In this document: piece after piece, positions 2,370 to 58,898 of the stretch
How the letters are laid out: every line of letters begins with the position of its first letter
How positions within the stretch are numbered: position 1 is the stretch's first letter
Assembly (NCBI GenBank): GCA_026770705.1
Contig: JANJGN010000039.1
Coordinates: 3,038,001 to 3,102,000 of the forward strand
Length of the DNA stretch: 64,000 nucleotides
DNA from: Isurus oxyrinchus
Lineage: Eukaryota
Reading direction: 5' to 3'
Translations under genes and position numbers: made by a program
Notes under the pieces: model-generated
The model's database searches: none
What the model was told of the DNA's origin: nothing
The model's input: the letters and a program-made list of their open reading frames with translations, nothing else

Positions 2370-2650
2370 TAAATTTCGGGAGCTTTTGTTTCTGAAGTGA
2401 CGAAAGTGTTGAAACTCAAAATGTGTTTTTTGCTACTTGGAGTGAATGGCAGACACCAAATTCCTTGTCATTATCACAGATCCAATATTAAGATGGAGTT
2501 GTCAGGAGGAACTCCCAGTTTTATTTATGTACAACAGTCGGATGTTTAAGTGCACTGCGGTTCCTAAATTTTCAACAAAAATCACCTCTTTCTGCTTCAC
2601 TGTCGCCATTATCTATGGTCCTTTAGAGGATATTTCTTGCAAGAAGCACA
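2370..2650 (+). pseudogene. Old GPR139-like exon-2 relic (TM1-TM3)
   Basis: After pyrimidine tract/cag: LFLK*RKC*NSKCVFCYLE*MADTKFLVIITDPILRW...CTAV...TSFCFTVAIIYG..ISCKK, collinear with ILRRRRCGLSNCVTRYLVAMAVADLLVIILDLILR...SVWFTVTF..ICCPK. Ends just before a (TCTA)n repeat. Confidence 0.7.
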
Positions 2651-2679
2651 TGCATGTATTCACGCCATTTCCATGTTAA

Positions 2680-2704
2680 TCCATCTATCTATTTATTTAT
2701 TTAT

Positions 2705-2768
<64 letters not shown>

Positions 2769-2790
2769 ATATATATATATATATATATGT
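2680..2790. repeat. (TCTA)n/(TA)n compound microsatellite
   Basis: Direct reading of sequence. Confidence 0.95.
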
Positions 2791-4565: not shown

Positions 4566-4635
4566 ATGGCAAAACTGAGACTTCGCCAGATTGAAGACAT
4601 TTACTATTCTATTCTCGGGGCTATTGGTGTACCTG
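4566..4635 (+). pseudogene. GPR139-like GPCR gene C, short exon 1 (MAKLRLRQIEDIYYSILGAIGVP)
   Basis: ATG at 4566, 23 codons + 1 nt, TM1-start motif IYYSILGAIGVP, canonical G|gtgag donor, phase 1 as in A1/A2. Confidence 0.8.
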
Positions 4636-7099: not shown

Positions 7100-9480
7100 T
7101 TTACCTCATTTAGCGGAATGTTTTTGCCACACAACGCGATGGAGGGAATCCCCAAGTGAAGGCGGATTTTGTGTGCTCAGGGACTGTGTGAGGGTCAATA
7201 CTATCAATACTGCCATGAGCATATCCACGTGGGTAGGTTATTGGGGCGAGTTCAGTTTTGTGTTTCCATCTTGTTAATTTCCTGACCACATGCAAAAGAC
7301 CCAGTCTAGCAGTTTTCTTTATTACGCGGCCAGCTCGGCCATTAGTAGTGCTAGAGATTCTCTCTTGATCATAGACACGGAAGCCCCCTACGTGGAGTAT
7401 ATTTTTTATTGCCATCCCAAAATCTTCCTCCATTGATGATCACTCATTCATCATCTGAGACGACCGATAGGGCTTAATTAGCAGTGGACTTTCCTTGCCC
7501 AAGTAATACCTGATCCCATGAGATTTCATTGAATTTCCAATTACCTTTAAGGCTGTTTCAGATGCGTCACATTGAACATAAAAGTTTTGCACCAATGGCA
7601 TTTAAGAAAGCAACAAAAAATGAGTGATGGCTCGAAATGTGATTGAGAATTAAGTTTTTAGATAGGGTTATTTAACTGAGAGGTTGGCTTATGATTGGGA
7701 TGAGCTTTGAAAGCAATAAGAACTATTAATCTACAAAAGATAAACTGCTTGAATCGTTAAGGTAGTGGAACTGCAGTCAATCAAGCAGGGTGCTTTGTCC
7801 TAGATTAATTCAATATTCTTGAATGTTATTGGGACATAACTCAACCAGACAAGTGTAGTATTTTCCAATCACACTCTTTATTTGCGCCTTGTAGAAGAGA
7901 GACGGGAAAATGACAAGGGTGTTTGATGGATAATTATTTACTGTCGATGATCATTGACTGTCGCCGGTGTGTGGCGAATATAACTTGTTGGTTTTCAGCA
8001 GAGTTCTGGGTGTTGCCCAGGTCCTGTTAGTTACACATAGGCAAAGATTTCTTCAGCATCTGTTGAGTTGCAACTTTTGCTTAAGTTTTCGCAAATATGA
8101 GTGGATGCTATCTCCACCCCCCGCTCCCCAAACCCAAACCTTTTCTGAGCACATGATGGAGAGAGATTCATTGATGAAGTGGATTAAGATGGTTGCGCCC
8201 GGACTATGACCTCAGCATCTCCTGCAGTGATATCAAGAGGCTGAGGTGGGTGACTTGCAAAAATAAAAATTCCTTTGTGCTCTGCATACTACAATTAGTA
8301 GAAACTCCCCTCACCCCCTTACATGTATTGACTCAAATTTCGCTTCCGATCCCTGCTACCATAAAATGACAAATGTTGTATTGATATGAAGCACAGTCGC
8401 TCTCGCATCACATCATGAGTTCAGCACCAATGTCCATGTCTGTATCAAATCTGATCGAAGAGCTGGAGCTCAGACACAACTCATAATGAGCGTCAATGAA
8501 CAGTTTATGTCTTTTTGCGTAAAGGCCGGTATTTTAGCTGTACTATTACAACGTGGCGTGGAAGGATTTTTCAGGGACACTGATCTCCAATCCAATTGGT
8601 GAAATCTGACAGGACCCATATCCTCTCCATCATCCAGCCCCTTCAGTTGTTTCTTCATATCACGCTATGTGAATCACATAGGCTGAAGACTGGCCCCTGT
8701 GATGATGCCATCTTCAGAATGAGGACGGAATGACCCATCAACTCCTCACTTCATCCTGAATGTGGCTACAAATTCTTTAGCCATTTTTTAGCACTGATGT
8801 GCTGAGCTCCACAATCATTGCCGATGAGGATATGGGTGGAGTGTCCTCTGCAAGTGAGTTTTTTGAAATATGCAACAACATTTAAGACAGCATGTGACAG
8901 GAATTGACGGCTGATATTTTCTTATTTGTTTGTGGGACCAATTAGCACTTTCTGTTGTGCGCTGCTTCCGCTGTTTTTGGCAAGCAAGTAGACTTACCTT
9001 GCAGATTCATCAGGTTGAAACCTCGTTATTATCTGGGAATGGTGCCGCTCCAGACATATTACGTATGTCGGCAAATATCCTTCTCCAGTATCCTCGAACA
9101 CTTGACCTCGAACACCTGGAAGGGCAAGAACATAGGGACAATATAAATTTCACATTCCTTTCCAAGTCACAAACCAAAATGACAAGGAATAATTCACCGT
9201 TAATTGAGTGACATTGCATCAAAAACCTGGAACTCATTCTTCGAGCACTGTGTGTCGATTTGCCTCACTTCAGCTGCAACACTATAAAACCATTCCCTTC
9301 AAGAATAAATAGAGAAAACGGAATAAAGACTGATCTTGTCAATATACCGCAAGCAGAGGAAGTGCCACATCATGCTGAATCTATGAATAATGCGTCCTTT
9401 TGCATTGAAATGATGAACCTAGCTGACTCCTTTGATCCGAATAGATTGAGACTAATCTCACATGCTTAAGTTATTTTAAG
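7100..9480 (-). mobile_element. Decayed non-LTR retrotransposon (CR1/L2-clade) ORF2 reverse-transcriptase region
   Basis: Minus strand reads QPLDITAGDAEVIVR..IHFI..LSIMCSE, a decayed form of the RT motif DITAGVPQGSVLGP..F..FINDL. Many stops. Confidence 0.65.
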
Positions 9481-11949
9481 TAGTATCCAGTACCCTGGTC
9501 GCGAACTGAGAACATACACCTTCAAGTCACTCTTGAATATCCAAGTTTGTACACAAAAGGCTTGGCTGAAAATGTTGCCCACAAACAACCGCGCCAAACA
9601 TCTTGCAACACCCCCTCCACACCCCCGACCCCCAACCCCTACCGCCTTTCTATTCACAGCATTGAACCCGTCCCCATCAGGTCAAGGATTGCACTTCCGA
9701 TTGGCTGCCGACACAGTTTTGAATCTCTCATTGCCTCCTGCCCGTTGTCATGGTCACATTGCTGTTAAACTGATTTCGGATTTCGGCTCGTGGACAAAAT
9801 CCCATCGCTCTCTGTTTGATCAGTCTAGGATCATGGGCCAAAGAGGATCATGAGCCAAAGTGCACTGTACCTGGTCTCAGTTTCTTTTCCCAACTGCAAA
9901 TTATTAAGGTGTCAGGAAGAGATTGTTGTTGCTTAAAATAATGGATAATTACACAGTATATACATATTTTAATTTCTCTATTTAATTTAGCAGGAAAGCG
10001 ACTGGATATATTTTCATTGTCTGTATTCTTAATTTGATAGATACAATAATGGATCATTGTTTGCATTGTTCAATATTTCTTTCAGTTGATAATTTACCGA
10101 TTCATTTTTTTGATATTTCAACGTTTAATTCGGAAATAAAACAGAAAATATATTGTTAATTTATTGATTTATTTTATATAATTAGTCTTCTCAAACTTCG
10201 GCTACATCAACATGTAACTGTGAAAAATATTGTTTTTTTAACGAGTTTCCCTATTGGCAGTGATGGCCAAGACAGTTTGAGTGCTGATATTTTTATTAAA
10301 CATCTTTGCATATTTCATGAAAGCGAATTGATAATATGGAAATGACAAATTAAATCTCAGTGTAAATGCATGATGTTGTAGGGATGTAAATAGTGGGTTT
10401 GCTCAGCTAACACCTGGATAGTAAAAGGGCAAATGAAGGCCGACTTTCATTTCTGTCGGACTTTGGTGGTTTCTTATGGATTTTGATTTTCTAATACATG
10501 CATCATTTCCAGTGCAGCCTAAGGGTCATCAGAAAATCCCTACTCAGTTTATGCACATTATGTGACCCTGTAAGGTTGTTATGATTGGTCTGATGGGATC
10601 TGCCACAGCCAATCAATATTGGATGCTTGCAATCGCTATTCAAAATTGTGAATGAGAGTTAGCTTATTAACTCACAAGCTGATCCAGAAATGTAAACCGT
10701 TCTTTATCCTTATTCGAATAATTCTTCTTAATGTTTTCAAAGTTCGTCAAAATCGTTAATCAACAACTTGCCTAAATAATCAGATTCAAATTATTGATTC
10801 ACCATCCAATCAACATACAATGCCACATTGCATTGTTGTTTTCCTAAGTTCCAGTGTGCAACATCTATGCATCACTGTGCAGCATTTTCTATAACCTTAA
10901 AACAACTTCATACTTCAATGAAAGCTCGATTGTGAAAATGTGAATTTTCCATTTCTAATCTGTTCCTCTCCAGCCTCACTGGAGATTTCAGTCGGAAAGC
11001 TGTTCTGAACCCTTACCTGATCCATGATAGGCTATTGCAACCGGGACTACACACACAATGTAATTTAAGGATATGCATTTAGTCTAGTGTTATGTAATTA
11101 ATTTTAAAATGCACAAAATGATTTGATAAACGTTTGAATTAAGAAGTTGCATTTCTGGCTGCATCAAATTTGTCCCTTCAGATTCACTGAGTAATGCTAC
11201 CCCTCGAAATGCAAACGGAGGTTATTTAAGTAAGCAACATGACTTATATGATGCAGCCAGGATCATGCAAGGATCAGAACAATTTCGCTTCATTTTTACT
11301 GATGAGTGAATATCATCAGTCTTTAATTGAATGCTCTTACTGTTAACTTCCACATAATAACAAAGCATTGAATGAATTCACTAAAAAGTTCCTGCTTTTT
11401 GAAAGAAAATTAAATATGGATCTACCAAACAATTCTAAAATGCACTGGTATTCTGTTCCCGACAAATGTAAAATGAAATTAGAATAAAAATCATTACTTT
11501 GGAAATGGATTTGTTCTATATCATCAGGTAATCAACAAATCGCAAACTAATTTTTCCAATCATGTCTTAGCTATTTCCAATACTTTACCAACACAAGTCG
11601 ATGTGCAAATCATGGTCAATTTCTCTCTGGGTTTTCTACATTTGGTGTCCAGCAGGAATCAGTGTTCAATTTTTCATTTCTAAACGTTTCACAAGGATGC
11701 AGCTTCTGAGATGAAAGTGATTCTTTTCTGCCCTTTCAGAAACAAATATTTTGTACTTCACCCGGTCAAAAAAGGGACCTCTCTCCTGTGCCCTGAGTTG
11801 GAAAACTCTGAGTTAAATCGCAGCCGAATAATATTTCTGAATTGCTCATTCACCATGTTTTGGTTATCGATCTAATTCCCATTCCCCCTGCATTTTACCA
11901 TATCTATTCAATGTGCTTTAAAACTGGCCTGCCTAGAAAAAAACGTGAC

Positions 11950-12740
11950 CATGCACAAAACTAACTCTGCCCTGAAACTGCCAATAAATAGTCCAAGAAC
12001 AATATAATCAGTCTGCCTGACAATATCGCTTTTCTCCCATTTGGAGATTAAACTGCCCCTTGATCAGCACTGACTAAACCAGACTTCCCACCCTGCATCG
12101 TACATGTTGCTTCAGTCCTTCTGCAATGAATCAGCGAAAGATACGTTCTGAACTTTTCCTCGACAATGCTCACCTTGCCTATCAATGTCACATTACTCAT
12201 CGTGCCTTAAAACTACTGACTGGTCTGTCATGAACCCCTGCTTCACACCGCTAGTCTCCATAAACATACTTCCTTACTTGTATTGTCGTTGAACGCCAGC
12301 ATGAGGGCGCCTGAGTAAACATTCATTCAGCCTCTTCTATGTGGGACTTTTTTGTAGTCCAGTGACCATTATAACATTTCCTGTTTATTGCAATTCCACC
12401 TATACCATCCCAACTGCCCAGACTTGCCCAGGGCTACGTTTTTTCTTCAAGCTGTCTCTCCTGTTGCACAATGAAACATCCCACCACTTACTGAATCTAT
12501 TAAATACCCGGCACACTTTCCACCACTACATCTTCCAGAACAGAACTCTACTATGCTAAATCTTTATTTTGTGCCCGCATTTCACAGTCCACATTGCACC
12601 TTCACACGTGAATTCGCTCGTTCCACCTCCTTTTTCTCATTTAAAATTTAACAAGCCGAGGCTTTTTTGGACCTTCAGTCAGTCCAGTACACATTCACCC
12701 TCAGCGCGCTGAATCTTCAGTGCACAATAGCTGTTCAGAA
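11950..12740 (+). mobile_element. Probable L2 LINE endonuclease-region fragment
   Basis: Residual ALT.T..L, NE.A...TF and IVV.RP pattern resembling the APE endonuclease; heavily decayed. Confidence 0.4.
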
Positions 12741-12992
12741 TTTATTGAGGGTGCTGCTCCCTAAGGATGAATAATCAATTAACGCTTAACCATCCTGCGC
12801 ACTTTTACTAGGTTCAATGCATATATAAAACACGTTGCTATTGGAAATCATGCTAAACATGATTGCATTAAACAATTTAAAAGATGCATGAAGAAACTAA
12901 ATTTGCAATGAATACCGTTTGCTGCAAACAAAAGAAAAATATGTTCATCTTTGTTGTTTATCTCATGTTATGTGTCTCTCTCTCTCTTACAG

Positions 12993-13250
12993 TGAATGGC
13001 GTTGCAATTGTGAATCTTTTGCGAGGAAAGCATGGTCTCTGCAAATGCATTACATACTATATGATGGCAATGGCAGCGGCTGGTCTCCTTATTGATTGTG
13101 CTGTTATCACAATGACCTGTTTAATTCTGGTCATTGAGGCCTGTGTGCCAGCTAGCTGCGACAATGCTTTATGAGTCACATCAGCCTCTTTCTGGTTAAC
13201 ATTGATATCGCCCTTATGGTCACTGCGTTCTGTAATACACTCTGTCTATG
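12993..13250 (+). pseudogene. GPR139-like GPCR gene C, decayed and truncated exon 2
   Basis: Acceptor tctctctcttacag|TG AAT, then VNGVAIVNLLRGKHGLCKCITYYMMAMAAAGLL matching NLVTIVILRRRRCGLSNCVTRYLVAMAVADLL. Stop at 13172-13174, SASFWLT remnant of TM3, then Gypsy sequence. Confidence 0.8.
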
Positions 13251-13299
13251 CTTCGTGGTAAGTTCTCTAATATAACTGTTTTATGTGTGGCTCTTTTTT

Positions 13300-15730
13300 C
13301 CTGTTACTCTACCAACTACCTTAATCTATACGTCTCAGGTTCATTATCTTCAATTCTTTCTTTCTAAACAATGTTATCAAATACATTGTTAGATAATTGA
13401 ATTTCAGCACCTTCTCCCTGACCTTTAGATTCCTGTTCTTCATGTTTCAACCTGTGAGCTTGTGCTCTTGTTACAATGCAATCGGGAAGGAACCTAGGAT
13501 GCTCTTTCTGCAAAACATAGGTTGAAAATAACTCTACATATGCTCAACTACAATAGATATCAGCCACATCTGTGATCCAGGAATTACATTACCTAAAACA
13601 AATTGTATCAATGTAATGGGCAATTTGCCACTCCTCAGACAAACAGCTCACCTGTTTTCCACCTACTGTTAACATGTACCTTCCACAATGGACTAGGCTT
13701 AGCATCTCGATGATTCCCAATTATTATCACCTGTTCTGGCAATACAACCTCTGAGCAACAAGTATCACTCTCCGGCAACATTAAGGATTGTCTCGCCCAT
13801 ATATTTCTTTAAATTCTAATATATTTTCCTGCTCTGCCCTATACACAGTGAAAGATTTCCGCATCATGTACAAAATGTTTATACATTTCCACAACCTGCT
13901 CCCCAGAACACGCTTGGGTTATGAACACATTCAAGTCATTCTTGACATATCATTGATTCTTCCTTTCTTTACCGCTAAACAAAACATTTCTTTTTCCTCT
14001 GCCTGAACCTCAGAAGCCACAATAATTTTATACCCAGAAATTTGCTGCATCTGATTAATTTCCTGAATTTTCCCTGAGATTCCCAACACACTGACTTCTT
14101 GTGCCCAACTTTATCACTTTGAAAACACTTCAAATTTGGATTGTCTCTTCAGTCCTTAGCACCGTCCAATTTAGTTTTTGAAAAATAAATTGTTGCTTGG
14201 ATATTGCACCTGCTCCTTCCCTCCCCTTATTACACACAGTACTTTCAGTTTCCTATTTTGTATGCCTCACTTATTTAAAAGGGTGACGAAAAGAAACGAA
14301 TAGATGTAGGAGATAACTTCTAATGGTCAGCTATTTCTGTGGCATGTCTTACCGTTTTAACCCTCTGTCCCTCCACATGAGATCTCACTACCGAAGGAAG
14401 TGAATCTTTTAGTTAATCTAAAACTACTCCTTCTCGGAAATTATTGTGTTTAACTCTTCCAAACTCAGTTTACATTTGCCCAGGCTCCTTTCTTGTACTC
14501 CGAAATTTCTTGATGTCTGCCTCAAGATCCAACTCATATGCACTCAAATATGTATCTTAATACTTCAGAATACATTGAGCTTTCTTCTGACAGTGAAGCG
14601 TAACTATAATGAGCTCCACTCAATAACGTATACCTTAACAACAATGTCAGGTTTACTTCTGGTGAGTTAATCTCTTTATTATCTCCTCAAATGTAACAGA
14701 GTGCGCCTGGACGTCTCTCCCTCATCAATCTTGGAAAAGATTGAACAAATTTAGATAGCTCCCCAGCAGGATATACGTTTTTCAAAATCAGAACTTACAT
14801 CAACATCATATGTCTCTTTTTAAAAACTCTAACGTATTAAAATCAGAACTCTCTATCTCTTTCCTTGAATCTCTCCTCAATTGTTAACGTTTTCTTCTGG
14901 AGATCAAGTTTTTATATTTCCAAAATTTTTTGATATAATCTCTTTTGTTTTTCTTTTGCATCCAATTCAAGTTTTTTTAGTTACTTTGCTTATTGAAATT
15001 CAAGCCTCCTCAATTCCAACTGGAGTTTCACTACCTCCAGCTTTGACACATTAGTTTCAGTTTTTACTTCCAACAGAAAATGTTGTGCTATCAGTTCAAC
15101 TATATCTGCTTTCTTTGCTCCCACATTTAGCCTCAACTGCAACTTAACCAACAGACCTGTTGCTTACCCTTAGATTCTTTTGCTGTAACCAAATGGGAGT
15201 TATTAATGCTATTTCCAGTAACGATTTAGCCATTGATAAGGGCATCTTGCTGTCTCCCAACTTTAACAATACCTCAAGCCAACTCCTGAATTCAAAGCGC
15301 TTCTCGTACCTCCAACCTTAATGTTCAGCTTTTCCAAGCCACTCAAATATTTTCAAATATACAGCAGTTACTCGCCATTTTTTATGATGCGACAATGATG
15401 TGGGCTAGGTGGATGAAACAGACAAAAAAAACTTGTTCAAGCAGTCACAACGATTTGGCAATATGTATTTATTTCGAGATGCATGCCCTAAATTGAGGGG
15501 TTATAAGCTCATAAATTTTTCGGTAAACTAAATTAAACATGCAATAACAACAGTTAGGATTAAAAGCAAATGCATAGGTCTACAAATTAACACACTAATA
15601 AATCCTAAAACGCCTAATTAATTTGGCTTCCATTTACACCCTCGTTAAGGCAACAGTAAAACAAGAAACACATCCCGCCTAGTCACACATCACCCTGGAC
15701 AGAATAATTCAAAGTGGCGTTTTTCACATA
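13300..15730 (-). mobile_element. Gypsy (Gmr1-like) LTR retrotransposon relic: partial LTR, gag, protease region
   Basis: gag start near 15246 (MPLSMAKSLL...GAKKADIVELIAQHF), LSAYELDLEADIKKFR (cf. LKAYELVPEAYRQKFR), zinc-knuckle remnant CFQSDKVGHKKSVCW at ~14082-14130. Confidence 0.72.
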
Positions 15731-16616
15731 AAATAATATCACGAGAAATATTAGATATTCGGTAAAATATGGTTTAAATGGATTTCTAAAATACATAACA
15801 TCAAGCCCTCAAGGAGGATATTGTTTTCATTACTGGACACAACAATTTTACAATAATTTGAAAGCATTTGGACAGTTGCAGAATAATTTCACCACTATCG
15901 CTCTAAGGAAGAGAATTATAAATTACTTAGCAAGATCGTAGCAGTTGAAGAGGGAAAGGTTCAACATGGCTCGGTAGGGAGAGAGTTGATAAACATCATG
16001 GAGGTTTGAGTTTATTGTAAACAGGGCCGAGTGAACTGGTTTGTACATGCTCAAAAGGAATCGGCAGGTTTGTAGCCCAGGGGCCGCTGACAGTTCAATA
16101 ATCCTTGGGGAATGAGATGATGCTCCCTGATTGGGTGAGGTAGGTGTTGATCACCGGGCGGATTTCTCTGATTATGTCAGGCGAATGGCAACGAAATACC
16201 AAATAGGCTGAGTGAATCGTGTTTCACCTGGTCAATCATTCCGATTGGATGAGGTGGCTTTCAACAATGGGGTGCGTGAATTAATAGAGTGGTTGTGGAG
16301 ATGGTGGTTTGGGGTAATGTTTGTGAGTCCCTGGGTGAAGCTCCGGCTTGACTGTGCTACCTGTAAGACAGCGGGCGGAGCTCCCGGATTGGCTGAGTCT
16401 CTGAAAAATATGTAGAACCGATACTTCACGACAGTCTTTAACTGCTGTCTGATCATGGACTGACTCACCCCATAAATTAACATCTTTGTGCAGTAACTTT
16501 AATTCATCAGCATAAACTTGGCACGTTAACATATATAGTCAGGAAATCTATAGTATAATAATTCACTAATTTTAACATATACGAATGTATATGATTCCCC
16601 GACCAGGAATGTGATT

Positions 16617-19045: not shown

Positions 19046-19049
19046 TCTG

Positions 19050-29480: not shown

Positions 29481-29504
29481 TCCTCTCACTAACTGACTTA
29501 TTTT

Positions 29505-36383: not shown

Positions 36384-36423
<40 letters not shown>

Positions 36424-36601: not shown

Positions 36602-36650
<49 letters not shown>

Positions 36651-41560: not shown

Positions 41561-41704
41561 CGCTGAGTTATTGGTGGGAGGGTTTTGATGGAGTATATAA
41601 TGCAGTGCAGACAGAAATCTGAGCTGTCCATTATTTTTGATTAAATCAGAAAACCATCAACGTATTGGCACCAATTTCCTGAAGGGGAATCTTGAAAAGT
41701 TAGT

Positions 41705-42200: not shown

Positions 42201-42229
42201 AGATAAAATCAATAAACTGTGGAAGGTGA

Positions 42230-42880: not shown

Positions 42881-42884
42881 CGCA

Positions 42885-47500: not shown

Positions 47501-48045
47501 TGATTAACATTCAGGGCCTCCTCTTGCCCCCGCACACCACACCCCCCCCCCCACCCCCCCACCACCATCTCCCCACCCCCGCTGCTGTAAATAAGATAAA
47601 ATGATTTAATTCTGGAAAATCATGGTTTCTTTGTACGCACAGTGAGAGACATTTTCCTCCATTCAAACTGAGTAACGAGCTGATAAAATATTGGCAGCGC
47701 TGCGTGATTCTGTTCCTTTGATAAGACACCTTGAACGTACAAGGCGGCCCCATCCTACCCCCACTCCCCCGTGCCAGCTGGCAATGTTAAATTCAAGGAG
47801 AGAATTCATGAAACTCCTAGCAATTTAATACTTCCAGATAGTAAACCCACTTCCACCTCCCAAAAATCCCCACCCCATCTCGCAGCCACATCTGCTGAAA
47901 AGGTTAAGTTAAATGTTAAAATTCAAGAAGTTCGCATTGATTCTTTCTGCCAGTGACAGACCCATAGCCCCTGCTGAAAATGTGAAATAATGCCCTATAA
48001 ATGTCAGATATTCAGCTCTTCTAATCATTGAACTAAGTAAAGAAT

Positions 48046-48923
48046 TTAAGTGAAAGGATATTTCAACATTTTCCACAACTGCTTCCTGAACTTAGTCTGT
48101 GTCACAGCATAAATCCAAGTGTTTGTGCAGCAACTAAGGAGCTGCAGCATGAAGCCCAATTCCATAACAAAAAAATCTAGATACAGGGAATTATAGCCTA
48201 AATCAGACATCCGCAACCATATGGAAAACAACATTAGCATTCCCCATAAAATGATGAAATTGGCTGAAATATAAAAGAGTAACATGATTGATTTCTTTCG
48301 ATTCTCCACCGCTGGGTCGTTGGGGCTTTGCCCACTCCTGTGAGGCCGGAGTCTCTTGCGGGCCCTGCTGGTCACTAAAATATACTCGATGGTCAAAATA
48401 TTGATCAGCAGGATCAGCACAAATGGGACACACGGTGTTAGAATGTGATGGGTGAACTCGATTGTTACCCAGGTAGGATTGAACAGAACCTCCTTTCTGT
48501 AACCACAAAACGAGGGGAAGTTTACCATCCAGTACTGACCTGTAAGCAAAAAATACCAGAAAATGTTCTTTGAACAGCTCAGTGCAATGACGGTTCCCAG
48601 AATCACAGCTGCCGTTTCCTCACTGCAATATTTAGTTTTCAGCTTCGGGCAACAAATGGCCACAAATCGATCCAAGGTAAAAGTGACAGTGAACCACACA
48701 GAACAGTCAGTGGCTGCATAAAGCAGGACGGCATGGATATTACACACTGGGATTGATCGCAGGAAAGAAAAATACTTATCAAACACAATTGGAATATGCC
48801 TCAGTATCAGGTCCAGGATAATGACCAGTAGATCAGCTACTGCCATGGCCACCAGGTAACGGGTAACACAATTGGAGAGGCCACACCTCCGGCGCCTGAG
48901 TATCACAATCGTGACATAGTTCA
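48046..48923 (-). CDS. GPR139/GPR142-like class A GPCR, gene A2, coding exon 2
   Basis: Intact 292-codon paralog of 20586-21463 with 11 amino-acid differences, the same acceptor and the same DRF and TNTWIY motifs. Confidence 0.92.
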
Positions 48924-49979
48924 CTGCAAGGAAAGGTAATAAATAATAAAAGGCTATATCACTCTGGTACCAAAGTTGCCAGTAAAATTGAGATGCGATG
49001 GAGATGTGTTACAGCATCCTCCAGTGTAATGAAATGAATGGTCCAGAAACAAGGTATAAAAAATGTCTGTGATATACTGGAAGGCAGGATACATTGAATG
49101 GTTAAAATAAGGAGGTGGGAATAAGGTGGAGATGGGAGTTTGCGGGAGAGCGGGAATATTTGCGAGACAAAGGAGGAAAGGAGTAATCGGGGGATAATCG
49201 GTGCACGTAGCGGTGATAACAGCGCATGGAGTGGTGGGCAAGCGTGCCCATTACGGGTGGTACTCATAGGTGATGTTGGAACTCATGAGTGGGAGGGGAG
49301 ACGTGTTTGAGTGAGAGCAGCCAGAGGTGATGATTGCGTTCAGGCAAATAAGTGAAATGGGGTATTTTAATATTTTGCTCAACATATCTCCTGACAGGAA
49401 GGCTCTGCAGTTATGTGATGGAATGTTTCCTCTCTCCAAGGATGTTATTTTAGGAATTTCGAAGAGAGCTTTCTTGCGAAATATCATTTCAAATTAAAGG
49501 ATAAATGACCATTTCTTACAAAATACGAAATGCAATTAATAATGATCATGTACACCACAAACACTCATACACCCTCACACAAAAATAATAATTTGCAGAA
49601 ATGCTGCACATACTTAAGTTATTACGAGTGTAGAACAGGAACAGCTCATTCCTTAATGTGCTTAATGTGCTGGTTGTAAACATTGCAGGACTGAGGTCTT
49701 CATTCCTCGGTTATTGAAGACAAATGGAGTTTTTAAATATCTGGCTTTTAGTCGACAATGTGATGGAGCCTCTGTGTTGAAGATATGTACCAACATGTAC
49801 AGCCTATCAGCCTCTTTTAATGCCTGAAATCTTCAAAAATGTCTCTTAAAAATATTATTTTGAAGTGTTTCTATTATGAGCAAAAGTCTCCCTGTCCTTC
49901 GATCTTGGTGTTGGATTTCGAATCTCCAAACACTAAATTTTACGTTGTGAACAACTTCAGAAAATGAAGTTATGTTCAA

Positions 49980-51663
49980 ACTGGTTTCTTAGTGGCACAG
50001 CGAGACAACCTGTTAAAGGCGAAGGCATCCAGAATATATCTTACCACAATCTCCTCTTCTCCTGCAGTGTACTCCGGATTCCTGGTGACAATGCCTGTGT
50101 CCTTAAGATGGTGATGATATGAAGGATGCAGCAGAACACTATGAATATGATCACCCGCTCCAGCGTGTAAGGGAGAGTTCACTTCCAATGGCTCAGGAAT
50201 GAGAAGCGTTTCTTTCCCACAATGGCGGGCTGATCCACAATGGCCTGTGCGACTCCATTACACTTGGTATTGAGGTGTTATGTTCACCTGCTTTGTTGGA
50301 GGTAGGGAATGGTAAAGTTGCATTCTTTTGATCCATGTATCGACGGGGCAGACTTCATCTACGAAAAGCCACTGTGTGCTTCCCTATGGAGCTACGGAGA
50401 TGCTGGAAACGTCCGACTGCTTCATAATGAAGGTATTGTGGCTCTCGCCAGGATATTGGATGTTCACCAACGTGATGTACTGTGCATAAATATACATCAA
50501 ATGGACGTGAATTCAGTCAGAATTCTTTCAGAGCCTTTAACTCTGTCCATTCTAATGGGGACACGGCAGAATTACGTACACCATTGGGAATCCCTCTGCC
50601 CTGGGAGACCATGGGACCGATCATTCTGCTTCTCCCTATTAAGGGAGCAAAAGTACAAACGTGGCACCCAACAGAGATGTTCTCTGTCAGCTAATGAATA
50701 CATAGTTAGACAACATACTGGGAGATAATTAATATAACACCAGCTATTCTCCTGCGTGTACTGTTCCGAATCCATAGCACTTTCAATGATCATGTGAACA
50801 CCGTGTCCAAAGACAGCAGCTCCCTCACCCTGGTGTGCGGCCCCAGGTCCTGTTGAAGGAGGTGACACGGGTCTGTAGCACCTTATTGTTGTGTCAGAGT
50901 TATATCCGTCTCTGAACATGTTTTGGGTGTAGGTTTGTAAAGTGTTCCTGACAATCCAGGGGTGCTTAGAGCAGTGCAACACCTCTCCCCCCCAAAAAAA
51001 TGTTAACAGACGGTCCCCTCCCTATTCACTCCGCTCATTTCGCTCGTCATGGTACAGGTCCAGGTGCACTGTAACTACATCCTCAAAACCTCTTCCAAGG
51101 TTGGGCCTATAGATACTCTATCCTCTCTCAATTTATGCAGCCCTTCACAGCACAGCACCATGAAGACCATCTAAAGCACTTCACTGGACTTTGAAATAAC
51201 AGTGATAAAAAAAAACAACTGCAGATGCTGGAAATCCAAAAAGTTCTGTCGAAGGGTCATGAGGACTCGAAATGTCAACTCTTTTCTTCTCCGCCGATGC
51301 TACCAGAACTGCTGAGTTTTTCCAGGTAATTCTGCTTTTGTTTTGAAATAACAGTAGTCAGTCAAATTCCGTTCAGCTGACAGTCAGATGTCTGGCCCGT
51401 TTCAATTAAATTGGAAAGGGTGCCTCGTGTTTTTTAACAAATATTTAGCTGAGAGTGATTAACACAGCTTTTTGGTGGACGGTACAGCCAGTGTTTCAAA
51501 GGCATGCATCAAACATGCTGAAAACCCCCGCACGACACGGGACACCATGTGTGAGTTTCTGGACATGGGATTGATTGGAGAAGCGAGATGAAATTGTGAT
51601 CAAATCACACGATTGGGAATTTTGAAATTGACGGACTGAAAGACCTGGCAGCAATCTTGGCCC
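49980..51663 (-). mobile_element. PIF/Harbinger transposase relic in the GPCR A2 intron
   Basis: Duplicate of 22520-24201. Confidence 0.72.
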
Positions 51664-52137
51664 TTGAGCACAGGGATAATGGTGGAATGAGATTTGGCAT
51701 GGGCAAGCTTACAAAGATTAGAGTTTTGTCTGGGGTCTGTTTTTTAGGAACGTTTGTAGCAGCAATTGTCTGGCCAGATTAACATTTTAACAGCCGAGTC
51801 TGGCTTGGACAAATGCACAACTGAGGGATCATTCGGGTGATGTGTTGATGCAGCGAGGATAGTGGGTGAGACTAAATAGCTGGTAGAAGACAGGCTTAAG
51901 GATAGAAAAGGTGAGGGCTCACAAATCAGCTCAGGGCAAAATGGAGCATGGGAGTCGAAGACACTATGGTTCAGGCTTGGATAGTAGTGCGGTAGGCGGG
52001 TGGAGCGACTGGATATGGAACGATCATTAAAACAGGAACAGTAGCAAATGACTTCCATCTTCCTCACATGTAAGAGACAGTAACAGTAATACAGTCAATC
52101 TGGTTTAAGGAACAGATTGTTGCATATAGGTTCTTAC

Positions 52138-52312
52138 CGCTGACACCAACAAGAGCCAGGATGGGGAAGTAACCAACTTGGATTAACAAAATTACTCCCT
52201 CGATCCTAAAAGCTAATGATATCCGATCTTGAGAAAGGTAGTAAAGCCCCGAGGATAAACTCCTGTCCATTTTTGTAAAATTCCAAGATTTTTTTCTAAG
52301 TTTCTGATTCAT
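52138..52312 (-). CDS. GPR139-like GPCR gene A2, coding exon 1 (starts at the second in-frame ATG)
   Basis: The first ATG of A1 is ATA here (52333-52331). The next in-frame ATG at 52312 gives MNQKLRKKSWNFTK...YFPILALVGVS, then G|gtaaga donor. 175 nt, phase 1; protein 350 aa. Confidence 0.82.
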
Positions 52313-52592
52313 TGTTGTCACGTTCCAATCTATTATTCTCAGGCTCTGATGTTTTCTCTCCCCCTCTCAGGAGTCGTTGATCCTTGCGACTGCTGAATGC
52401 GACTGTCCCCCTGACATTAGGGGACAGCACTTTGAAATGAGCCCCGTATAAATAGCACTGTGAAACCCTCCAGTGACACAATTAGGATCCAGGGAGATTG
52501 AAGGTAATTACAGGGACTGAACAAATCGGTTCAGTTAACGCCTTGGATTCCAACAATTTTTGTCTCACAACATAGTAGAAGATTTACTTGGC

Positions 52593-53590
52593 TAAAGTTC
52601 ATTATAACTGTGAATAAAACGCTGAAGGCTGAAAATAGTTTGTCCCTCTCCAAAACTTTTCATTTTTTATTTGAATATCTGTGACATAAAATATGAGCCT
52701 TGATCTGATTATTTTTCCTGAGGAAATCCACATATTTTAAACAAATGAACTCGCTTTCCCCCTACAATTTTCACCATGATCTTCCTGAAATGCACTGCCA
52801 CTGGAAATCTTGTTAGAGCTACCATAATTTTTGAAAAACACTGTTTCCCACTTCTGATTTAGCTGGGGGTCCAAAACAATCTATTAAGGAAGTGCTAAAT
52901 GGTTCTGTACAAGCTGGTATTGGACTGAATAAAGGATGCACTTGAATTGATGATTCTGGCTTCCCCACTATTAGCATTTATGTCATGTCTGGCAGAAACT
53001 AACAACGCCTTTATGAAACCGTGGGAAAAACATATGTTTCAGCATGTTAGCCTGTGTTTTCCTAAAGCACGCATGAACTGCCATTGGAACACCGTAAGCA
53101 ACTCGTGATGGAACGTCCACCAGATGAACTATTGTAAAGTGTCGATTGGTTCATATTTGAGGTGGTCTCCCTTTCCTCATTAGCAGAGCATTTTAAAATA
53201 ATAACACTCAGGTACTGATTCTGATTCAGGCTCTGATAGGGTGTTATAGCAAATTCTCTCAACTTAGGATCAGCCTATTGCATTTCTACTAAAGTAGATG
53301 GACCAAAATGTCATCCCCATTCTCATTACATTCTTCAGTTTGCTCCAGTTCCTTCTAAGGCTTCCTTTTTTTGCGGGGCTGAGATCTAGCCATGAAGCAG
53401 TCAAGAAACAATCCAGGATATTCCTCAAATCGCGCCTCAGCTACTTTCAGTTCCAGTTGGCGTTATAACAGTCTCGGTGAGGCTAATGTATTTGAACCAG
53501 CTGTCTCATAGCCCAAGATGTAATCAATTCCTTAGATAGCGATTTGATCCAAAGCTCCAACTGCAGCCTCTCCTCTCACTAAGTGACTTA
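52593..53590 (-). mobile_element. Remaining Gypsy integrase fragment in unit 2
   Basis: Paralog of 28501-29500; the rest is deleted. Confidence 0.75.
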
Positions 53591-53594
53591 TTTT

Positions 53595-56153
53595 GGGTGG
53601 AGTCTTCTGAGCCCACTGACGGCGGGTGTGATATGTGCTGGGCATGGAAAATATGGTGGGGTCCACTTCAAGACGGCATGAATGCAGGTCGCGATCTTCT
53701 CCTTAGCCTGCCGCTAACGGGCTGCATTTCTCACCATCGGTCAACGAGAAGCTGTAGCGAGTGTGATTTTATTTGATTCAGGTTGCCTACCCGCGCCTTT
53801 AAGGATCCAAGAGGCTCGAAAGTGCCATCAGCCGTTCCATGTATTACCCCCCCCCCCCCTCAACTGACCCCCACACAAACCGGCACTGGCTTCAAATCCG
53901 CCAGCAATTCATTGCACTGCACAACAGTTGTGCTGCACACGTTGTGCAATCTCTTCGCCAAAACTGGTTATGTAGCAGTCACTGCTGGAGGCGCTGTCAG
54001 CTCCTTGCATATTCAGCATCATGGTTTGTATCAGTGTCCCCAATGCCGAATGTTGACAAGGCACCCAGGCAGAGCAATCCTCCCTGGCATTCCGAGGGGT
54101 GACCAGCACTTTCTGGGAAGCATTATGGGTTTTTACTAAAGGACCCGCGATGATTACCACGTGTCGCTCTCTTTCGTGCTGTAGAAGGACCATGTCAGGA
54201 ACATGAATCCTGGTTACCTAGCAGCACGCCTGATGGCCTACAGGGACCGTTTAAGATGGAGGAGAGAGCGATTGGTCAGGCAGCTTCAGGAGCAAAATCC
54301 CGGAGTTAGAGGCTGCATGCTGACTGTGACGCTCTGGCTGTGAAAACTTTGGCTTCGGTCCTCTCAGAGGCCGAGATTTGCAGGACACCTGTCTGTTTTC
54401 ATCGCCCTGCTGTGGGGCAGTGGCATCCTGCTCGACCTGTGCAGCTGGATCTGTATAGTCTACAGGAAGAGGGAAGGCACATGGGCCTGTCATTCGCTGA
54501 GTCACTTGGTTGGATGGCCCCGGAGCGTGCACATGCTGACCTTCCTCCCTATGTGTGCCCGAGAAACCCTTGCTGACTCAGTGAATGGGAGGGGCAGCTG
54601 GATTGAGATCATGCATCCGAGGACCCATCTTATGTACGGTCTGCTGGATGCTAACTATGGCAGCAGCAAAAGAGTTAAGCCTATGCAGCATTGCATGAGT
54701 AGATGCTCTGGACCAAGGTCTCCATGGCAAACGCCATAATGCCAGTGTTGGACACTGCATGTTGCAATGCCGGTGCTCCTACATGAGCCTGGAGATGGAC
54801 GGTCTCCTCCATCATGCATTACAATTTGAGGAGTGCAGCCGACATGACTTTCTGATGTTGGCTGGCTTACCTTTGCAGCACCAATTCTGAGATATGACCA
54901 AGTCCAGTTGCTCAACATCTGACTCGTATTCAATAACTTTCTGGCTTCAGAACTCCGTGTGTGGAGACCAGGGAAATCCGTGCCTCCACCTGCTGTGGAG
55001 TGGGCAAGTTGTCATCAGATTATGATCCCGAGGCTTCTCTAAACGTACGTCCCATGGAGTCGTGTGTCTCTACACTGGTAGAGGGCGTGGATGAGCGCTC
55101 TAATGCAACTTTAGGCAGGGTGCCTTCAGACTCCTCCTCAGACTTTTCAACGGAGCTGTATGGGGGCACTGGGTCCTGGAATCCGTCGGCCGTTTCGCAG
55201 GTGTGCCTGAGAAAACAAGGGGAAATAATCAGTGCATGATATTGGCATATGATAGAGGACACATCACACACAGAAGTGTTTGCTAATGAATGCTGCACTC
55301 CTGGATCCTCACTTGCTAGATCATTGCTGACCTCATCGTTAACACAAGAGTGGTCCCAGTTATAACTGCCCAGATGAATGCCTCTGTTGTCCAATTCCAT
55401 CAGAATGTTGATGTCCAGCAATACGTTCCTGTCTGCGATCTAGCCTTTCTGTTGTGATCCAATTTGTCCATCATGGATAGAGATAAGAGGGTGTATCATG
55501 ATTCCTGCCAGGCCAGATGACAAGTATGCCTGGTATGTGTGGGTGGTGAGTGGCCCAATGTGCGGGATGAAGACAATGGCGGCCTGTGTGAAAGAGTCAA
55601 TGTCGCCGTCCCTTGCACTGGCAGTGAGTGAGGGCCTTGCGTTTGAGTGATGGGTTTGTGAGTGTGTGTTATGCGTGAAGGAAAGAATGACTTACACTGG
55701 AGGGACAGAGAAGATCATTGATACTTATGTGACTCTTGGTGGTTGATTTTATCTGCAGGTCGTTCGCCCTGACCATTGCTGTGAGCGCTGTCCAGTCTGG
55801 GTTTGTGACATTGATGCCCATCCTCCAGATGGTAGGGCACATCCCGGCTGCCCTCCAGCAGTATCTCGAGGGAACCATCATTTAAGAGGGTGGCTGCAGG
55901 CATTTTACCTTTGTTGGCCTGATCTCCCAGACAGAGGTGGTGAGCTGGTGGTGATCAGCGATTTGCTGAGGGCTGCATTGTAAAGGCGACGGCCAGGGTG
56001 ATGCAAAAGCGCTTTAATGTTGAGTGATCAAATCGAAGTTCTGCCACCTTTGAAACAATGTGTTTATTATGCATAAATAATAAAGTGGTCTTGGGAAGTT
56101 ATGGCATGAAAACCCGCCATTTTTGTCGGTGGCCAGGGCTCCATTTCACCAGC
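53595..56153. mobile_element. Paralogous Harbinger relic in unit 2
   Basis: Duplicate of 29505-32079. Confidence 0.6.
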
Positions 56154-58005
56154 ATGCTAGCGCACTTAGAGCAATTATGGGGGAATTCCAGCCACTGAAA
56201 CAATGTGTTAAGAAAGAATAAGTTATTTTGGCTGTGGGCTTTCAGAGCCGAGGCACCAACGAAAGGAGCACAGCAGCCCTTTTGCAGCCAGAGCCAGCCC
56301 ACAGCTGGAGGTGAATATAAGCTACTCTGAAGTCATCGACCTGCAGGGATTGAGATCCCATGAGTATTTGTTGTGCCTGAACGAAAAAAATCATCAGTTC
56401 TTTCATTGATCAGTTTTGGGAGGCCAAGATGACGCCATTCAAGAATTGCTCCATTTTTGCTTACCCCTTGCAATATTGATTTTTGACCTTTGGGAGAATT
56501 CCAATTTTTCCAGTGTATTTTTGTGCACATGAGTGTTTGCGTATCTGTCTCACTCTCTACCTCTCACTCCATATGCCTCTCTCTGTTCAGGTCTTTCTCT
56601 TTGACTCCCTCTTTCTCTCTCTCTTTCTTTTTCTATCTCTCATCTCTCTCTTTCTTTCCCCTCTCTCTTAGATAAATGTATCTCTAATTTTCCTTTTCAG
56701 TTCCCAAATTAACTGGGAATTATCCTTAACACTTCGCCCCTCGCTTCCTGCTGGAATTTGTCTGGCAAATGTGTTTGTGTTTGTTTGAGTATATTTGCCT
56801 ACGTTTGTGTGCCTGTGTGTGTGTGTGTTAACATATGTGTTTCCGTGTGTGTGTGTGTGTTAATCCATGTGTGTGTTTATGTATGTGTGTGTGCACACTT
56901 GTCTGTCAATGTGTGTGTCTGTGTTTGCATTTGTTGGTCTGTGTGTATGTCTCTGTGCATGTACACATGCGCGTGTGTGCGTGGAAGTGCTCAAACGTAT
57001 GTGTGAGTGACAGAGATAGAGAGAGAAAGAGAGAGAGTTTTGAGTATCTTGTAAAAGTGGTTAGTATAATTTCATATTCAATACTGCATGTTAACAACGT
57101 TTGCCTATCTGTTTAACAGGACTGGTCTTATAATTAACAAACATGCTTGTTATTTCCTGCACGAAGCTTGATTAACGTCTCTTTTATTCTAACAGTAGCA
57201 AAAGTAAACAATTGGCTATTTTAGTGTGTGAATCTGTCTTTGAAACTATTGATATGACCTGAGGAGTAGTGGGGTTAAATATACTGCACTCGTATCCCAA
57301 TTGATCGAAACAGGCTATGTCTCTCTCTGCCACTCCTCTGCTGTCTTGTACTCTCATTCTCTCTCTGCTTATCTGTCTCACTCTCTATCTCTCACTCCAT
57401 ATGCCTCTCTCTGTTCAGCCCTTTCTCTTTGACTCTCTCTCTCTCTCTCTTTGTTTTTCTATCTCTCATCTCTCTCTCTCTCTCTCTCTCTTTCTTTCCC
57501 CCTCTCTCTTAGATAAATGTATCTCTAATTTTCCTTTTCAGTTCCCAAATAACTGGGATTTATTCCTTGACCCTTCGCCCCTCACTTCTTGCTGGGATTT
57601 GTGCGGTTGTGTGATGGAAATTTGTCTGACAAATGAAAGGATAGTTTTGCCATGTTGTTGATTTTCATTGGAATCAGTGTGACGAATGAGAATGCTGGAC
57701 AGTAGGAAGTGCACTTTGGAGGGGACACAGCCAGGGCAGGGGTTTTCTCTCCAACCAGTGTGAGGGATTTCTGTGATGCCAAAGCTCCCATGAGAGCGAA
57801 GAGATATCTTATTACTGATATTTCTTCCTTTCAATCATTGTGAGGCTGTTGCACGATGAACAGTTGAACTGGCAAAAGAGCGAGGACGGCTAACTGGATG
57901 TGTGTCCCCCCTCCACACCTTCCATCTCTGCAGCTCCAGCCGCTGTGGTTCTGTAATTAACTGAGAACCTGCTGAAACGCTCAGTGATTTGTTTATTTTT
58001 ATTGT

Positions 58006-58898
58006 TTAATATGTTGAAATAATTGGGGTGAAGAGATGTTGCAGCATATTCTTAAATGCTCCGTGAACTTAGCCTGCTCTCTCTGTAAACCCCAGTGTTT
58101 GTGCAACAACCCAGGAGCTGCAGCATGAAGCCTAATTCCTGAACAAAAGCATAGAGATACATAGACTTATAGCACAAATTCCACATCAGTCTCCAAATAG
58201 AAGAAACAATTGACATTGAACATAACAGGAAGAAATTGGTTGAGATATCAGACAGAAAATTGATAGATTTCCTTCTACTCACCATCTATGGATCGCCGGG
58301 ATTATCCCACTTCTGTGAGCCTGGAATCCCCTGTGTTCTCTGCTTTACATTAAAATCTGCTTTACCATGAAAATATTGAGCAGCAGAATCAGGGTAAATG
58401 GAAAGCACGATGTTAGAATATGTTGGAGGAACTCAATTGCTACCCAGAACAGAGATTCGTGGATATTCCATGTGAAATCCCTGAAACCAGGGGGCGTTCA
58501 TCAGCCGATATTCAACTGTTATCATAATATACGAGAAAATGTTATTTGAACAGCTCAGCACAATCAATGTTCCCTGAAGCACAGTGGCTATTTTCTCACT
58601 GCAATATTCAGTTTTCAGCTTCAGGGAACAAATGGCCACAAATCCCTGAAAGGTGAAAGTGACGGTGAAACAGACAGGACAGTCTGTGGCTGCATAAAGC
58701 AAGATGGTGTGGATATTACACACGTGGATGGAGTTCCAGAAGTAAAACTGTTCCTTAAACAAGAATGGAATGTGCCTTATTATCACATCAGGGATAACGA
58801 CCTTTCGTCAGCCACAGCCATGGCCACCAGGTACTGAGTTACACATTTGGACAGACCACATCTGTTGCTCCTGAGGATCACAATCATGACAAAGTTCG
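58006..58898 (-). pseudogene. GPR139-like GPCR pseudogene B2 (exon 2)
   Basis: Duplicate of B1 at offset 24074 with the same frameshifts; DRF is QGF. Confidence 0.9.

Follow-up and report, generated by a model that had tools for sequence, protein, structure and literature searches.

A tandem array of GPR139/GPR142-related receptor genes in a shark genome as a candidate receptor repertoire

Is a cluster of GPR139/GPR142-like receptor genes in the genome of Isurus oxyrinchus part of a receptor repertoire, and what would such a repertoire sense? A preliminary description of the 64,000-nucleotide stretch of DNA analysed here, the window, proposed a lineage-expanded birth-and-death family that may sense amino acids or other chemicals. 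The explanation that we favour, and regard as fairly probable, is that the window covers part of a tandem array from a GPR139/GPR142-related family working as a receptor repertoire.

Receptor genes and relics of the window

The two open copies, A1 and A2, are located on the minus strand. Exon 1 of A1 (24674..24869) encodes an N-terminus with NVT/NFT glycosylation motifs and the first half of TM1, and exon 2 (20586..21463) encodes the remainder from the middle of TM1 to helix 8. The 3,210-nt GT..AG intron between them (21464..24673), of phase 1 and positioned in TM1, is 97.6% identical to that of A2, and splicing yields the 357-residue product predicted before. The phase-1 TM1 intron described for the family was confirmed by donor and acceptor in A1, A2, and C, and by the acceptor in B1 and B2. 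A TATA-like TATTTATA (24983..24990, minus strand), a motif match only, is positioned 121 nt before the A1 ATG and is kept in A2. A1 matches Pfam 7tm_1 at E 7e-14, its predicted structure contains seven long helices (pLDDT 81.7), and it has the D2.50, C3.25, DRx, W6.48, and TM7 NxxxY of class A (rhodopsin-like) GPCRs.

A1 and A2 were previously counted as intact, which holds for their reading frames. However, the first ATG of A1 is mutated in A2 (exon 1, 52138..52312; exon 2, 48046..48923; minus strand), leaving a 350-residue product from the second ATG, and both copies end at a TAA that precedes the usual stop of the relatives by about 7 codons. They stop 2 residues past KYP, as compared to 3–21 residues (mode 9) in 101 of 118 KYP-bearing relatives. 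The dN/dS between A1 and A2 is 1.00 (18 non-synonymous and 6 synonymous changes); an omega of 0.3 was rejected (p 0.008), and one of 0.5 was not. The open A copies depart from near-invariant columns at 13 positions, for which the median of the relatives is 4 and the 90th percentile 8, and A1 contains polar substitutions within TM1 and TM2. A1 and A2 look relaxed and may be in early decay.

The remaining six of the eight receptor pieces are dead. B1 (33925..34824, minus strand) is an exon-2 pseudogene disrupted by an internal stop and by five frameshifts of one base each, and its duplicate B2 (57999..58898, minus strand) has one additional stop. Both copies reported as frameshifted do carry frameshifts, but all five are identical, and therefore B died once, before duplication. 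Exon 1 of B1 or B2 was not found within the window. Locus C, on the plus strand, has a short-type exon 1 (4566..4635), which ends in YYSILGAIGVP plus 1 nt at a phase-1 GT donor, with TATTTAAA 94 nt upstream, and scores 12.4 bits with the HMM (best non-gene match, −0.8). The start of C exon 2 (12993 to approximately 13207) comprises an AG acceptor and TM1–TM3 with an internal deletion and a stop. C had been presented as a split pseudogene; both of these parts were found, but no 3' half was detected on the plus strand of the window. D1 (16400..16600, minus strand) is a relic of TM6–TM7–helix 8 with two stops, and D2 (43925..44128, minus strand) is its duplicate. The idea that D is the displaced 3' end of C, the two forming one split gene, was not borne out, as they prefer different relatives, though weakly. 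D1 adjoins a 50-bp tandem array (16607..17030), and a second one (44132..44503) follows D2. The repeat period is 50 only; a 25/26-bp dimer was rejected, and a repeat search of the window found no tandem array before A1, A2, or C. Locus E (2353..2646, plus strand; HMM 24–31 bits) is an old exon-2 relic from the end of TM1 to TM3 with three in-frame stops, in agreement with the claim of at least one old relic. The relics score above chance with the family HMM (E-values: E, 2.5e-7; C, 5.5e-8; D1, 3.2e-7; D2, 1.2e-6). As described earlier, 7tm_1 sequences occupy both strands: E and C the plus strand, and the A, B, and D pairs the minus strand.

Self-comparison of the window showed that the A1/A2, B1/B2, and D1/D2 pairs belong to one 24–27-kb tandem segmental duplication, which the preliminary description overlooked. 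One unit (7642..36455), carrying C exon 2, D1, A1, and B1, is 92–99% identical to the other (37454..60517), carrying D2, A2, and B2. A third unit begins at 61527, is 99.6–100% identical to 37454–39927 as far as position 64000, and continues beyond the window end. The cluster is therefore less independent than previously described: instead of at least six separate loci, the eight pieces are, as judged from this comparison, four or five lineages. The comparison of the first two units also revealed unit-specific inserts (8847–15439 and 25128–28488). At an inversion/deletion junction (38657..38766, minus strand), an inverted copy of the C splice donor together with the initial ~107 nt of the C intron (92.7% identity over 110 nt) is joined to 15439-type sequence.

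An assembly gap of 136 N in a CA-repeat tract (36456..36591) interrupts the part of the duplication in which 35–40 kb and 59–64 kb are 99–100% identical. Because of this near-identity across the gap, some of the duplication may stem from a join made in assembly or between haplotypes. It is highly unlikely that the whole duplication is an artefact of two haplotypes joined at the gap, which would leave a single copy each of A, B, and D. Most of the block is only 94–97% identical and contains multi-kilobase unit-specific inserts and the inversion junction, a divergence high for alleles, and the gap does not lie between the sequences 36592–39927 and 60654–64000. Among 30 listed differences between sequencing runs and the window in the duplicated block, 12 match the second copy and 17 differ from both; the runs are probably from a relative or another haplotype and therefore do not decide the assembly question.

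The family and its relation to GPR139

A protein database search revealed a very large chondrichthyan radiation automatically named 'probable GPR139', with 1,282 clusters at 90% identity passing E 0.001. Named shark proteins make up 119 of the best 120 of these; they come from 10 species, with Heterodontus francisci contributing 53 and Heptranchias perlo 30. At 50% clustering, 107 representatives pass E 1e-30. Divergent members occur in chimaera, skate, and five shark species, and the range of the deep subfamilies takes in sharks, skates, and chimaera. The six core motifs are all kept, together with an almost invariant TM3, in 115 of 118 close relatives (10 shark species, ~74% mean identity), and the core motifs are intact in 37 of 48 divergent members. 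This conservation and the breadth of the deep subfamilies indicate long-term purifying selection on the family, even if not on A1 and A2.

Two further lineages help to place the expansion: beta, apparently single-copy in amphibians and sturgeon, and alpha, a separate conserved gene with a coelacanth member (P0242/P0271). The 25 matches of the P0244 search comprised a single cluster from each of 20 amphibian species, one sturgeon, and four chondrichthyan proteins. In a tree built without true GPR139 and GPR142 sequences, the expansion grouped with beta (support 90/87, unstarred) and not with alpha, which separated together with its own shark orthologues (100/99); four protostome-type relatives formed a distant outgroup. 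A larger 75-row tree, calculated in quick mode only, left the placement of beta unresolved. The grouping with beta, new here, thus has moderate support. The tree and the 1,282 clusters, together with the pseudogenes, duplication, and inversion junction of the window, bear out the proposed lineage-expanded birth-and-death family.

Among lineages that have a name, the closest is probably GPR210 of Rinne et al. 2019 (PMC6504862), which comprises A, B, and an unnamed third set and is an orphan lineage beside GPR139/GPR142 in coelacanth, gar, and some fishes but not in mammals. GPR210 (reference ids ENSLACP00000014196, ...15589, and ...19189) matches alpha and beta in distribution. The survey of Rinne et al. 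(PMC6504862) contains no occurrence of shark or cartilaginous fish, and neither an amphibian member nor an expansion is listed in it. The shark expansion was not found described in the literature searched (subscription journals lay outside its scope, and one topic was swamped by palaeontology), and no match to the family in the searched half of the whale-shark supplementary files.

Two DNA-type sequencing runs reached depths of 23,798 and 4,236 on 21003–21669, whereas most neighbouring bins had a few hundred to ~1000 and ~60–300; the peak fits many paralogues, although depth does not equal copy number. None of the RNA or RNA-guess runs among the 15 listed (contigs, tissue not stated) contained more than 0.05 of the words of the gene. 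The best RNA share, 0.05, came from a coral metatranscriptome that also matched intergenic DNA. Run X1, which also covers intergenic DNA, was rejected as contamination. The three short contigs of RNA-guess run X10 are ~88–90% identical over TM3–4 and represent relatives. Four runs were compared with the window over 15000–34999 only, and no exon junction was present there.

Among solved structures, GPR139 matches best in sequence (single-sequence E 8e-7, profile E 1e-24), and it is the nearest characterised relative by profile, which places the family in a broad GPR139/GPR142/GPR210 group; the next receptor has a profile E of 3e-19, and peptide receptors rank next. A Foldseek search was non-discriminating, with generic class A matches (TM 0.62–0.77) and GPR139 17th among near-equals. 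Like GPR139 and GPR142, the shark receptors lack the NPxxY proline and partly keep the deep aromatic pocket residues, and GPR139 also has two coding exons (PMC7318219). However, P6.50 is mostly lost; C3.25 is present, whereas none is shown by the GPR139 chain in the profile alignment; and the shark family has many copies with fast turnover, whereas GPR139 and GPR142 are each one conserved gene.

A1 and GPR139 share ~28% identity (~75 identities in ~270 aligned residues, counted by eye), whereas true human and zebrafish GPR139 orthologues share 70% (PMC7318219). The Trp/Phe pocket of GPR139, formed by E108, F109, H187, W241, R244, and N271 (PMC7318219), reads L, Y, H, W, L, and F in A1. In the A subfamily, F109, H187, and W241 are kept as Y, H, and W, the H187 match being alignment-dependent, whereas the sites of E108, R244, and N271 are 95%, 99%, and 99% hydrophobic. 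Because of the low identity and the loss of the polar half of the pocket, the window copies are, as had been proposed, not GPR139 orthologues by this comparison, and amino-acid sensing by analogy to GPR139 is unsupported. Despite the solved-structure match and the kept aromatic residues, we see hardly any chance that the window receptors are GPR139/GPR142 orthologues or sense L-Trp and L-Phe in the GPR139 mode. The A subfamily has kept the aromatic cage (Y3.33, H5.42, W6.48) but not the charge clamp, which suggests that its ligand is a peptide or an uncharged aromatic, not free L-Trp or L-Phe.

Pocket variability and the possible functions of the family

We compared mean heterozygosity at 23 pocket positions with that at 51 other outer-half helix positions. 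The pocket is the more variable in 48 divergent paralogues (0.75 vs 0.59, p 0.002), which are 50%-cluster representatives that inflate overall variability, and likewise in the 12 of them whose species was checked (p 0.005). In 21 beta orthologues the pocket is nearly frozen (0.03 vs 0.23, p 8e-6). Outer loops of the paralogues are more variable than inner loops (0.47 vs 0.25; 0.71 vs 0.50), and the direction is opposite in beta (0.20 vs 0.37). Within the A subfamily of 118, the deep pocket varies no more than the other helix positions do (0.23 vs 0.25, p 0.63), and therefore its dozens of copies may be redundant. Diversification thus affects the pocket and loops between subfamilies, and the loops only within the A subfamily. 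A pocket hypervariable among paralogues and frozen among beta orthologues, new here, is the signature of a receptor repertoire in sequence, and it occurs in a large clustered family with pseudogenes. The earlier suggestion of a repertoire gains from these family-wide data; the window itself is weaker evidence than had been claimed, because it is mostly one duplicated block with relaxed open copies.

We propose that the family descends from one ancient GPR139/GPR142-related gene, which would have stayed apparently single in amphibians and sturgeon as beta and multiplied in sharks, skates, and chimaeras, where each genome would carry tens to hundreds of copies. The array would grow and decay by segmental duplication, deletion, and inversion. 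The copies would keep the signalling core (D2.50, C3.25 with the ECL2 cysteine, DR3.50, W6.48, N7.49xxxY7.53, and conserved inner loops), while the pocket and outer loops vary. We infer a repertoire function in which many receptors may recognise different exogenous ligands and feed into a common G-protein output; the cell type would be sensory or barrier/immune.

Chemosensing of the smell or taste type is possible but doubtful. The top-50 genes of a catshark olfactory library included no GPCR at all, by which low expression is neither shown nor excluded (PMC11979771). The known vertebrate chemoreceptor families (OR, TAAR, ORA/V1R, V2R, T1R, T2R) are also clustered, evolve by birth and death, and combine a variable pocket with a conserved signalling core; the shark family differs in its TM1 intron. 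No affinity to OR, TAAR, V1R, V2R, T1R, or T2R was found: within a threshold of E 0.1 only Pfam 7tm_1 appeared, and none of these families was among the 60 best solved-structure matches. Pfam Srw was assigned to 12–69% of members of Atlas look-alike clusters. Srw receptors are probably chemosensory and derived from peptide receptors. Nematode Srw and mollusc FMRFamide-like receptors, of which a snail expansion was reported (PMC11589774), are expansions from the same deep clade but independent lineages. TAARs are described as having arisen from a brain-type receptor (PMC8890504).

Receptors for immune or barrier patterns on leukocytes, gill, skin, or gut, not in the nose or taste buds, like the FPR, MRGPR, and chemoattractant expansions, are a branch of the repertoire explanation, and this branch we consider unlikely. 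They too are expected to show a variable outer face, a conserved inner face, and tandem turnover, as found here, but the nearest relatives of the shark family are nutrient and neuropeptide receptors, not chemoattractant receptors. In favour of an immune role, known shark olfaction is attributed to V2Rs (PMC6368271).

Rather improbable is a largely non-adaptive amplification, in which the arrays are prone to duplication and hold a few functional ancient subfamilies, whereas the majority of recent copies, A1 and A2 among them, are redundant or dying passengers of segmental duplications. The single block duplication behind three gene pairs, the death of B before copying, the signs of decay in A1 and A2, and the prevalence of dead pieces are consistent with it, whereas the conserved motifs and TM3 of the close relatives and the deep subfamilies argue against it. 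Still less probable are receptors for diversified endogenous or conspecific aromatic-ended peptides (hormones, pheromones, or reproductive peptides) of the ancestral GPR139/MIP/FMRFamide/myosuppressin ligand type. We know of no matching expanded peptide family, and such fast turnover is rare in endocrine receptors; the kept aromatic cage and TM3–ECL2 disulfide and the rank of peptide receptors after GPR139 in the profile search speak for such ligands. GPR139/142 are reported as sister to protostome Wamide/RFamide receptors, with an inferred ancestral aromatic-ended peptide ligand (PMC8557429).

Implications for cartilaginous fishes

Under the favoured repertoire explanation, cartilaginous fishes may tentatively be credited with a seventh, so far unrecognised kind of chemoreceptor family among vertebrates, which would number tens to hundreds of genes in each genome and would have been recruited from an ancient GPR139-related peptide or nutrient receptor. 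If so, the family would outnumber shark ORs, TAARs, and ORAs together and would explain why sharks smell or taste well despite few classical receptors. Whatever the tissue, more than 1,000 database entries under one automatic name contradict the picture of cartilaginous fishes as poor in GPCRs and olfactory receptors (as stated in PMC8455134; catshark has 5–8 genes each for OR, ORA, and TAAR, PMC6368271). The apparently single amphibian orthologue with its frozen pocket is a tractable handle: the ligand and expression of the Xenopus or axolotl orthologue would point to the ancestral role.

Receptor pieces and rearrangement of the array

Two long open frames on the minus strand (20589–21548 and 48049–49008) have Pfam 7tm_1 as their sole match at E 0.1. 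Searches with TBLASTN and with family HMMs built from database relatives identified eight receptor pieces within the window. The plus strand contains an old exon-2 relic, E (2353–2646), and C, with exon 1 at 4566–4635 and exon 2 from 12993. The minus strand contains the TM6-TM7-helix 8 relics D1 (16400–16600) and D2 (43925–44128), the frameshifted exon-2 pseudogenes B1 (34824–33925) and B2 (58898–57999), and the two-exon open copies A1 and A2. A1 is spliced GT..AG from exons 24869–24674 and 21463–20586, with a 3,210-nt phase-1 intron inside TM1, and encodes 357 residues, in exact agreement with the preliminary description. The phase-1 intron in TM1 reported there was also borne out for the donor and acceptor of C and the acceptors of B1 and B2. 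The A2 product (open frame 48049–49008) starts at the second ATG and is 350 residues long. The predicted structure of A1 exon 2 is the expected helical bundle (AlphaFold model, 51-row alignment, pLDDT 81.7). A short SINE-like repeat in the A1 intron (23779–23882) reached enormous depth in all four of four runs, and a diverged copy is located at 1780–1873.

Most of the window is made up of a tandem duplication, in which 7642–36455 matches 37454–60517 at 92–99% identity; a third unit starts at 61527. The loci originally counted as separate are real pieces, but A1/A2, B1/B2 and D1/D2 are not independent, since all three pairs derive from one and the same duplication event. B1 and B2 have five frameshifts and one stop in common, so B was already dead at the duplication. 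An inverted copy of the C splice donor at 38657–38766 marks an inversion/deletion junction; the break falls exactly where C exon 1 ends and shows microhomology of a few bases. The array thus alters through block duplication, deletion and inversion. The 5' breaks of the D relics directly adjoin a 50-bp tandem array (16607–17030 at D1, 44132–44503 at D2), possibly a trace of the deletion by which the remainder of the gene was lost. Upstream of A1, A2 and C, no 26-bp array was found. The sections at 35–40 kb and 59–64 kb are 99–100% identical and include an N gap, and may therefore represent a haplotype join. The bulk of the duplicated block has 94–97% identity and large private inserts, which would exceed the usual allelic difference.

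Of the 24 differences between A1 and A2, 18 are non-synonymous and 6 synonymous (dN 0.023, dS 0.023); the introns diverge by 2.4%. An omega of 0.3 was rejected (p 0.008), and 0.5 was not. In A1, TM1 has gained a D and TM2 an E at positions occupied by A and V in A2. Both proteins stop two residues past KYP, whereas the mode is nine in the 101 relatives having this motif. At 13 near-invariant columns A1 deviates from the consensus, compared with a median of 4 (90th percentile 8) in the 118 close relatives that form its subfamily. The description of two intact copies holds for the reading frames but probably not in the sense of selection: despite the open frames, relaxed selection on A1 and A2 is the simplest reading of dN/dS, stop position and column departures. 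The N-terminus of the subfamily is a variably repeated unit of ~12 residues with an N-glycosylation site (DWNVTT-type), present in one to five copies among relatives and seen at 24806–24884 on the minus strand and in database proteins P0010, P0085 and P0117.

A large chondrichthyan family and its conserved relatives

The A1 query retrieved 1,282 clusters at E 0.001 out of 2,583 candidates from a database clustered at 90% identity. The best 120 of the 1,282 show 63–71% identity with one exception, and 119 of them are named proteins from ten shark species, all annotated as 'probable/putative G-protein coupled receptor 139' (53 from Heterodontus francisci, 30 from Heptranchias perlo, 11 from Rhincodon typus). 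A library clustered at 50% identity contained 107 representatives below E 1e-30 and 935 below E 0.001, a set that also takes in unrelated class A receptors. The 20 representatives checked included divergent members belonging to Callorhinchus, Leucoraja and several sharks; the most distant were from coelacanth, salamander, a teleost, amphioxus and a snail, or were unnamed proteins. These matches indicate that the window is probably DNA of shark type. Together with the window duplicates and the dead B copies, the cluster count upholds the proposed lineage-expanded birth-and-death family. Several database proteins (P0140, P0202, P0226, P0257, P0264) fuse a receptor fragment to an integrin, sodium channel, Ig-domain or other protein and are most likely gene-prediction chimeras beside scattered pseudogene copies.

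A search with salamander protein P0244 returned 25 proteins: 20 from amphibian species (one cluster each), one from sturgeon and four chondrichthyan family members. In this amphibian and sturgeon gene, beta (P0244, P0277–P0296), all 21 sequences carry N in place of D at 2.50. The beta pocket is almost invariant and basic (K6.51, K6.55, R7.35), which suggests one conserved acidic ligand. A coelacanth, teleost and amphioxus profile revealed a second conserved gene, alpha, with 161 matches, of which the best 120 were examined; they include sharks, coelacanth, sturgeon, teleosts, amphibians, turtles and squamates, and none from mammals or birds. Alpha (P0242, P0330, P0364, P0382 and others) keeps R6.51 and has S, C or T for W6.48; it is auto-named GPR139, yet is clearly a different gene. 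A careful tree was built from 37 of 75 rows, true GPR139/GPR142 not being among them; it recovered alpha (100/99) and beta (100/100) and placed 19 of 20 expansion members in one group (92/85). The expansion joined beta (90/87), separate from alpha and amphioxus, a grouping with moderate support. The expansion itself is restricted to sharks, rays and chimaeras, and bony vertebrates retain a probable co-orthologue. Rinne et al. distinguish three sets next to GPR139/142 that occur in coelacanth, gar and fishes: GPR210A, GPR210B and a third left without a name. Among published names these are the most probable candidates; the text does not mention any shark (PMC6504862).

Pocket variability and possible function

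GPR139 is the best solved-structure match of A1 (E 8e-7 with the single sequence, 1e-24 with the profile). The identity is about 28%, estimated by eye, compared with 70% between zebrafish and human GPR139 (PMC7318219), which agrees with the earlier view that these are not GPR139 orthologs. The GPR139 pocket contains hydrophobic F109, H187 and W241 and polar E108, R244 and N271 (PMC7318219). A1 has Y, H and W at the former, the H187 match depending on the profile alignment since the single-sequence alignment is shifted there, and L, L and F at the latter. The subfamily percentages at E108, F109, H187, W241, R244 and N271 are L95, Y75/F23, H96, W100, L58/F38 and F91. The aromatic cage is kept, but the residues of the charge clamp for free amino acids are lost, which argues against amino-acid sensing by analogy with GPR139; the ligand of the A family probably differs.

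We compared 23 positions, which we take to be the standard class A pocket with numbering anchored on A1 motifs, with 51 other outer-half helix positions. Mean heterozygosity was 0.75 in the pocket versus 0.59 elsewhere (p 0.002) in 48 divergent paralogues across subfamilies (length 290–500, 88% coverage, truncated representatives left out; species checked for 12 of the 48), and 0.75 versus 0.58 in the 12 of named species. The values were 0.03 versus 0.23 in 21 beta orthologues and 0.25 versus 0.36 in 92 alpha orthologues (p 0.08). Within A's subfamily, variability in the deep pocket did not exceed that around it (p 0.63). Outer loops were more variable than inner ones in this subfamily (0.47 versus 0.25) and in the divergent set (0.71 versus 0.50), less variable in beta (0.20 versus 0.37), and not different in alpha. 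So subfamilies diverge in the pocket and members inside a subfamily at the entrance, with a common G-protein face, a sequence signature that supports the idea of a diversified receptor repertoire.

A repertoire for varied outside ligands is the best reading of these patterns, and we consider it somewhat more probable than not, with smell- or taste-type and immune or barrier sensing about equally probable within it. The next most probable readings are neutral amplification, peptide signalling and GPR139-type amino-acid sensing. Protostome Wamide/RFamide peptide receptors form the sister group of the wider GPR139 group, and the ancestral ligand has been inferred to end in an aromatic residue (PMC8557429). 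The receptor genes had no match in the RNA data sets examined, and the text of the catshark tissue atlas mentions no receptor of this kind (PMC11979771). Catshark has 5–8 genes each in OR, ORA and TAAR (PMC6368271), and the whale-shark genome paper describes cartilaginous fishes as poor in GPCRs (PMC8455134); the 12 of its 24 supplements that were searched contained no match. We found no description of the shark expansion in the literature, although supplements and subscription papers may mention it. The observation is real, modest as far as this window goes and interesting for the family as a whole, which would represent a giant, apparently undescribed GPCR radiation whose sequences carry a repertoire-like signature and whose apparently single-copy relative is tractable.
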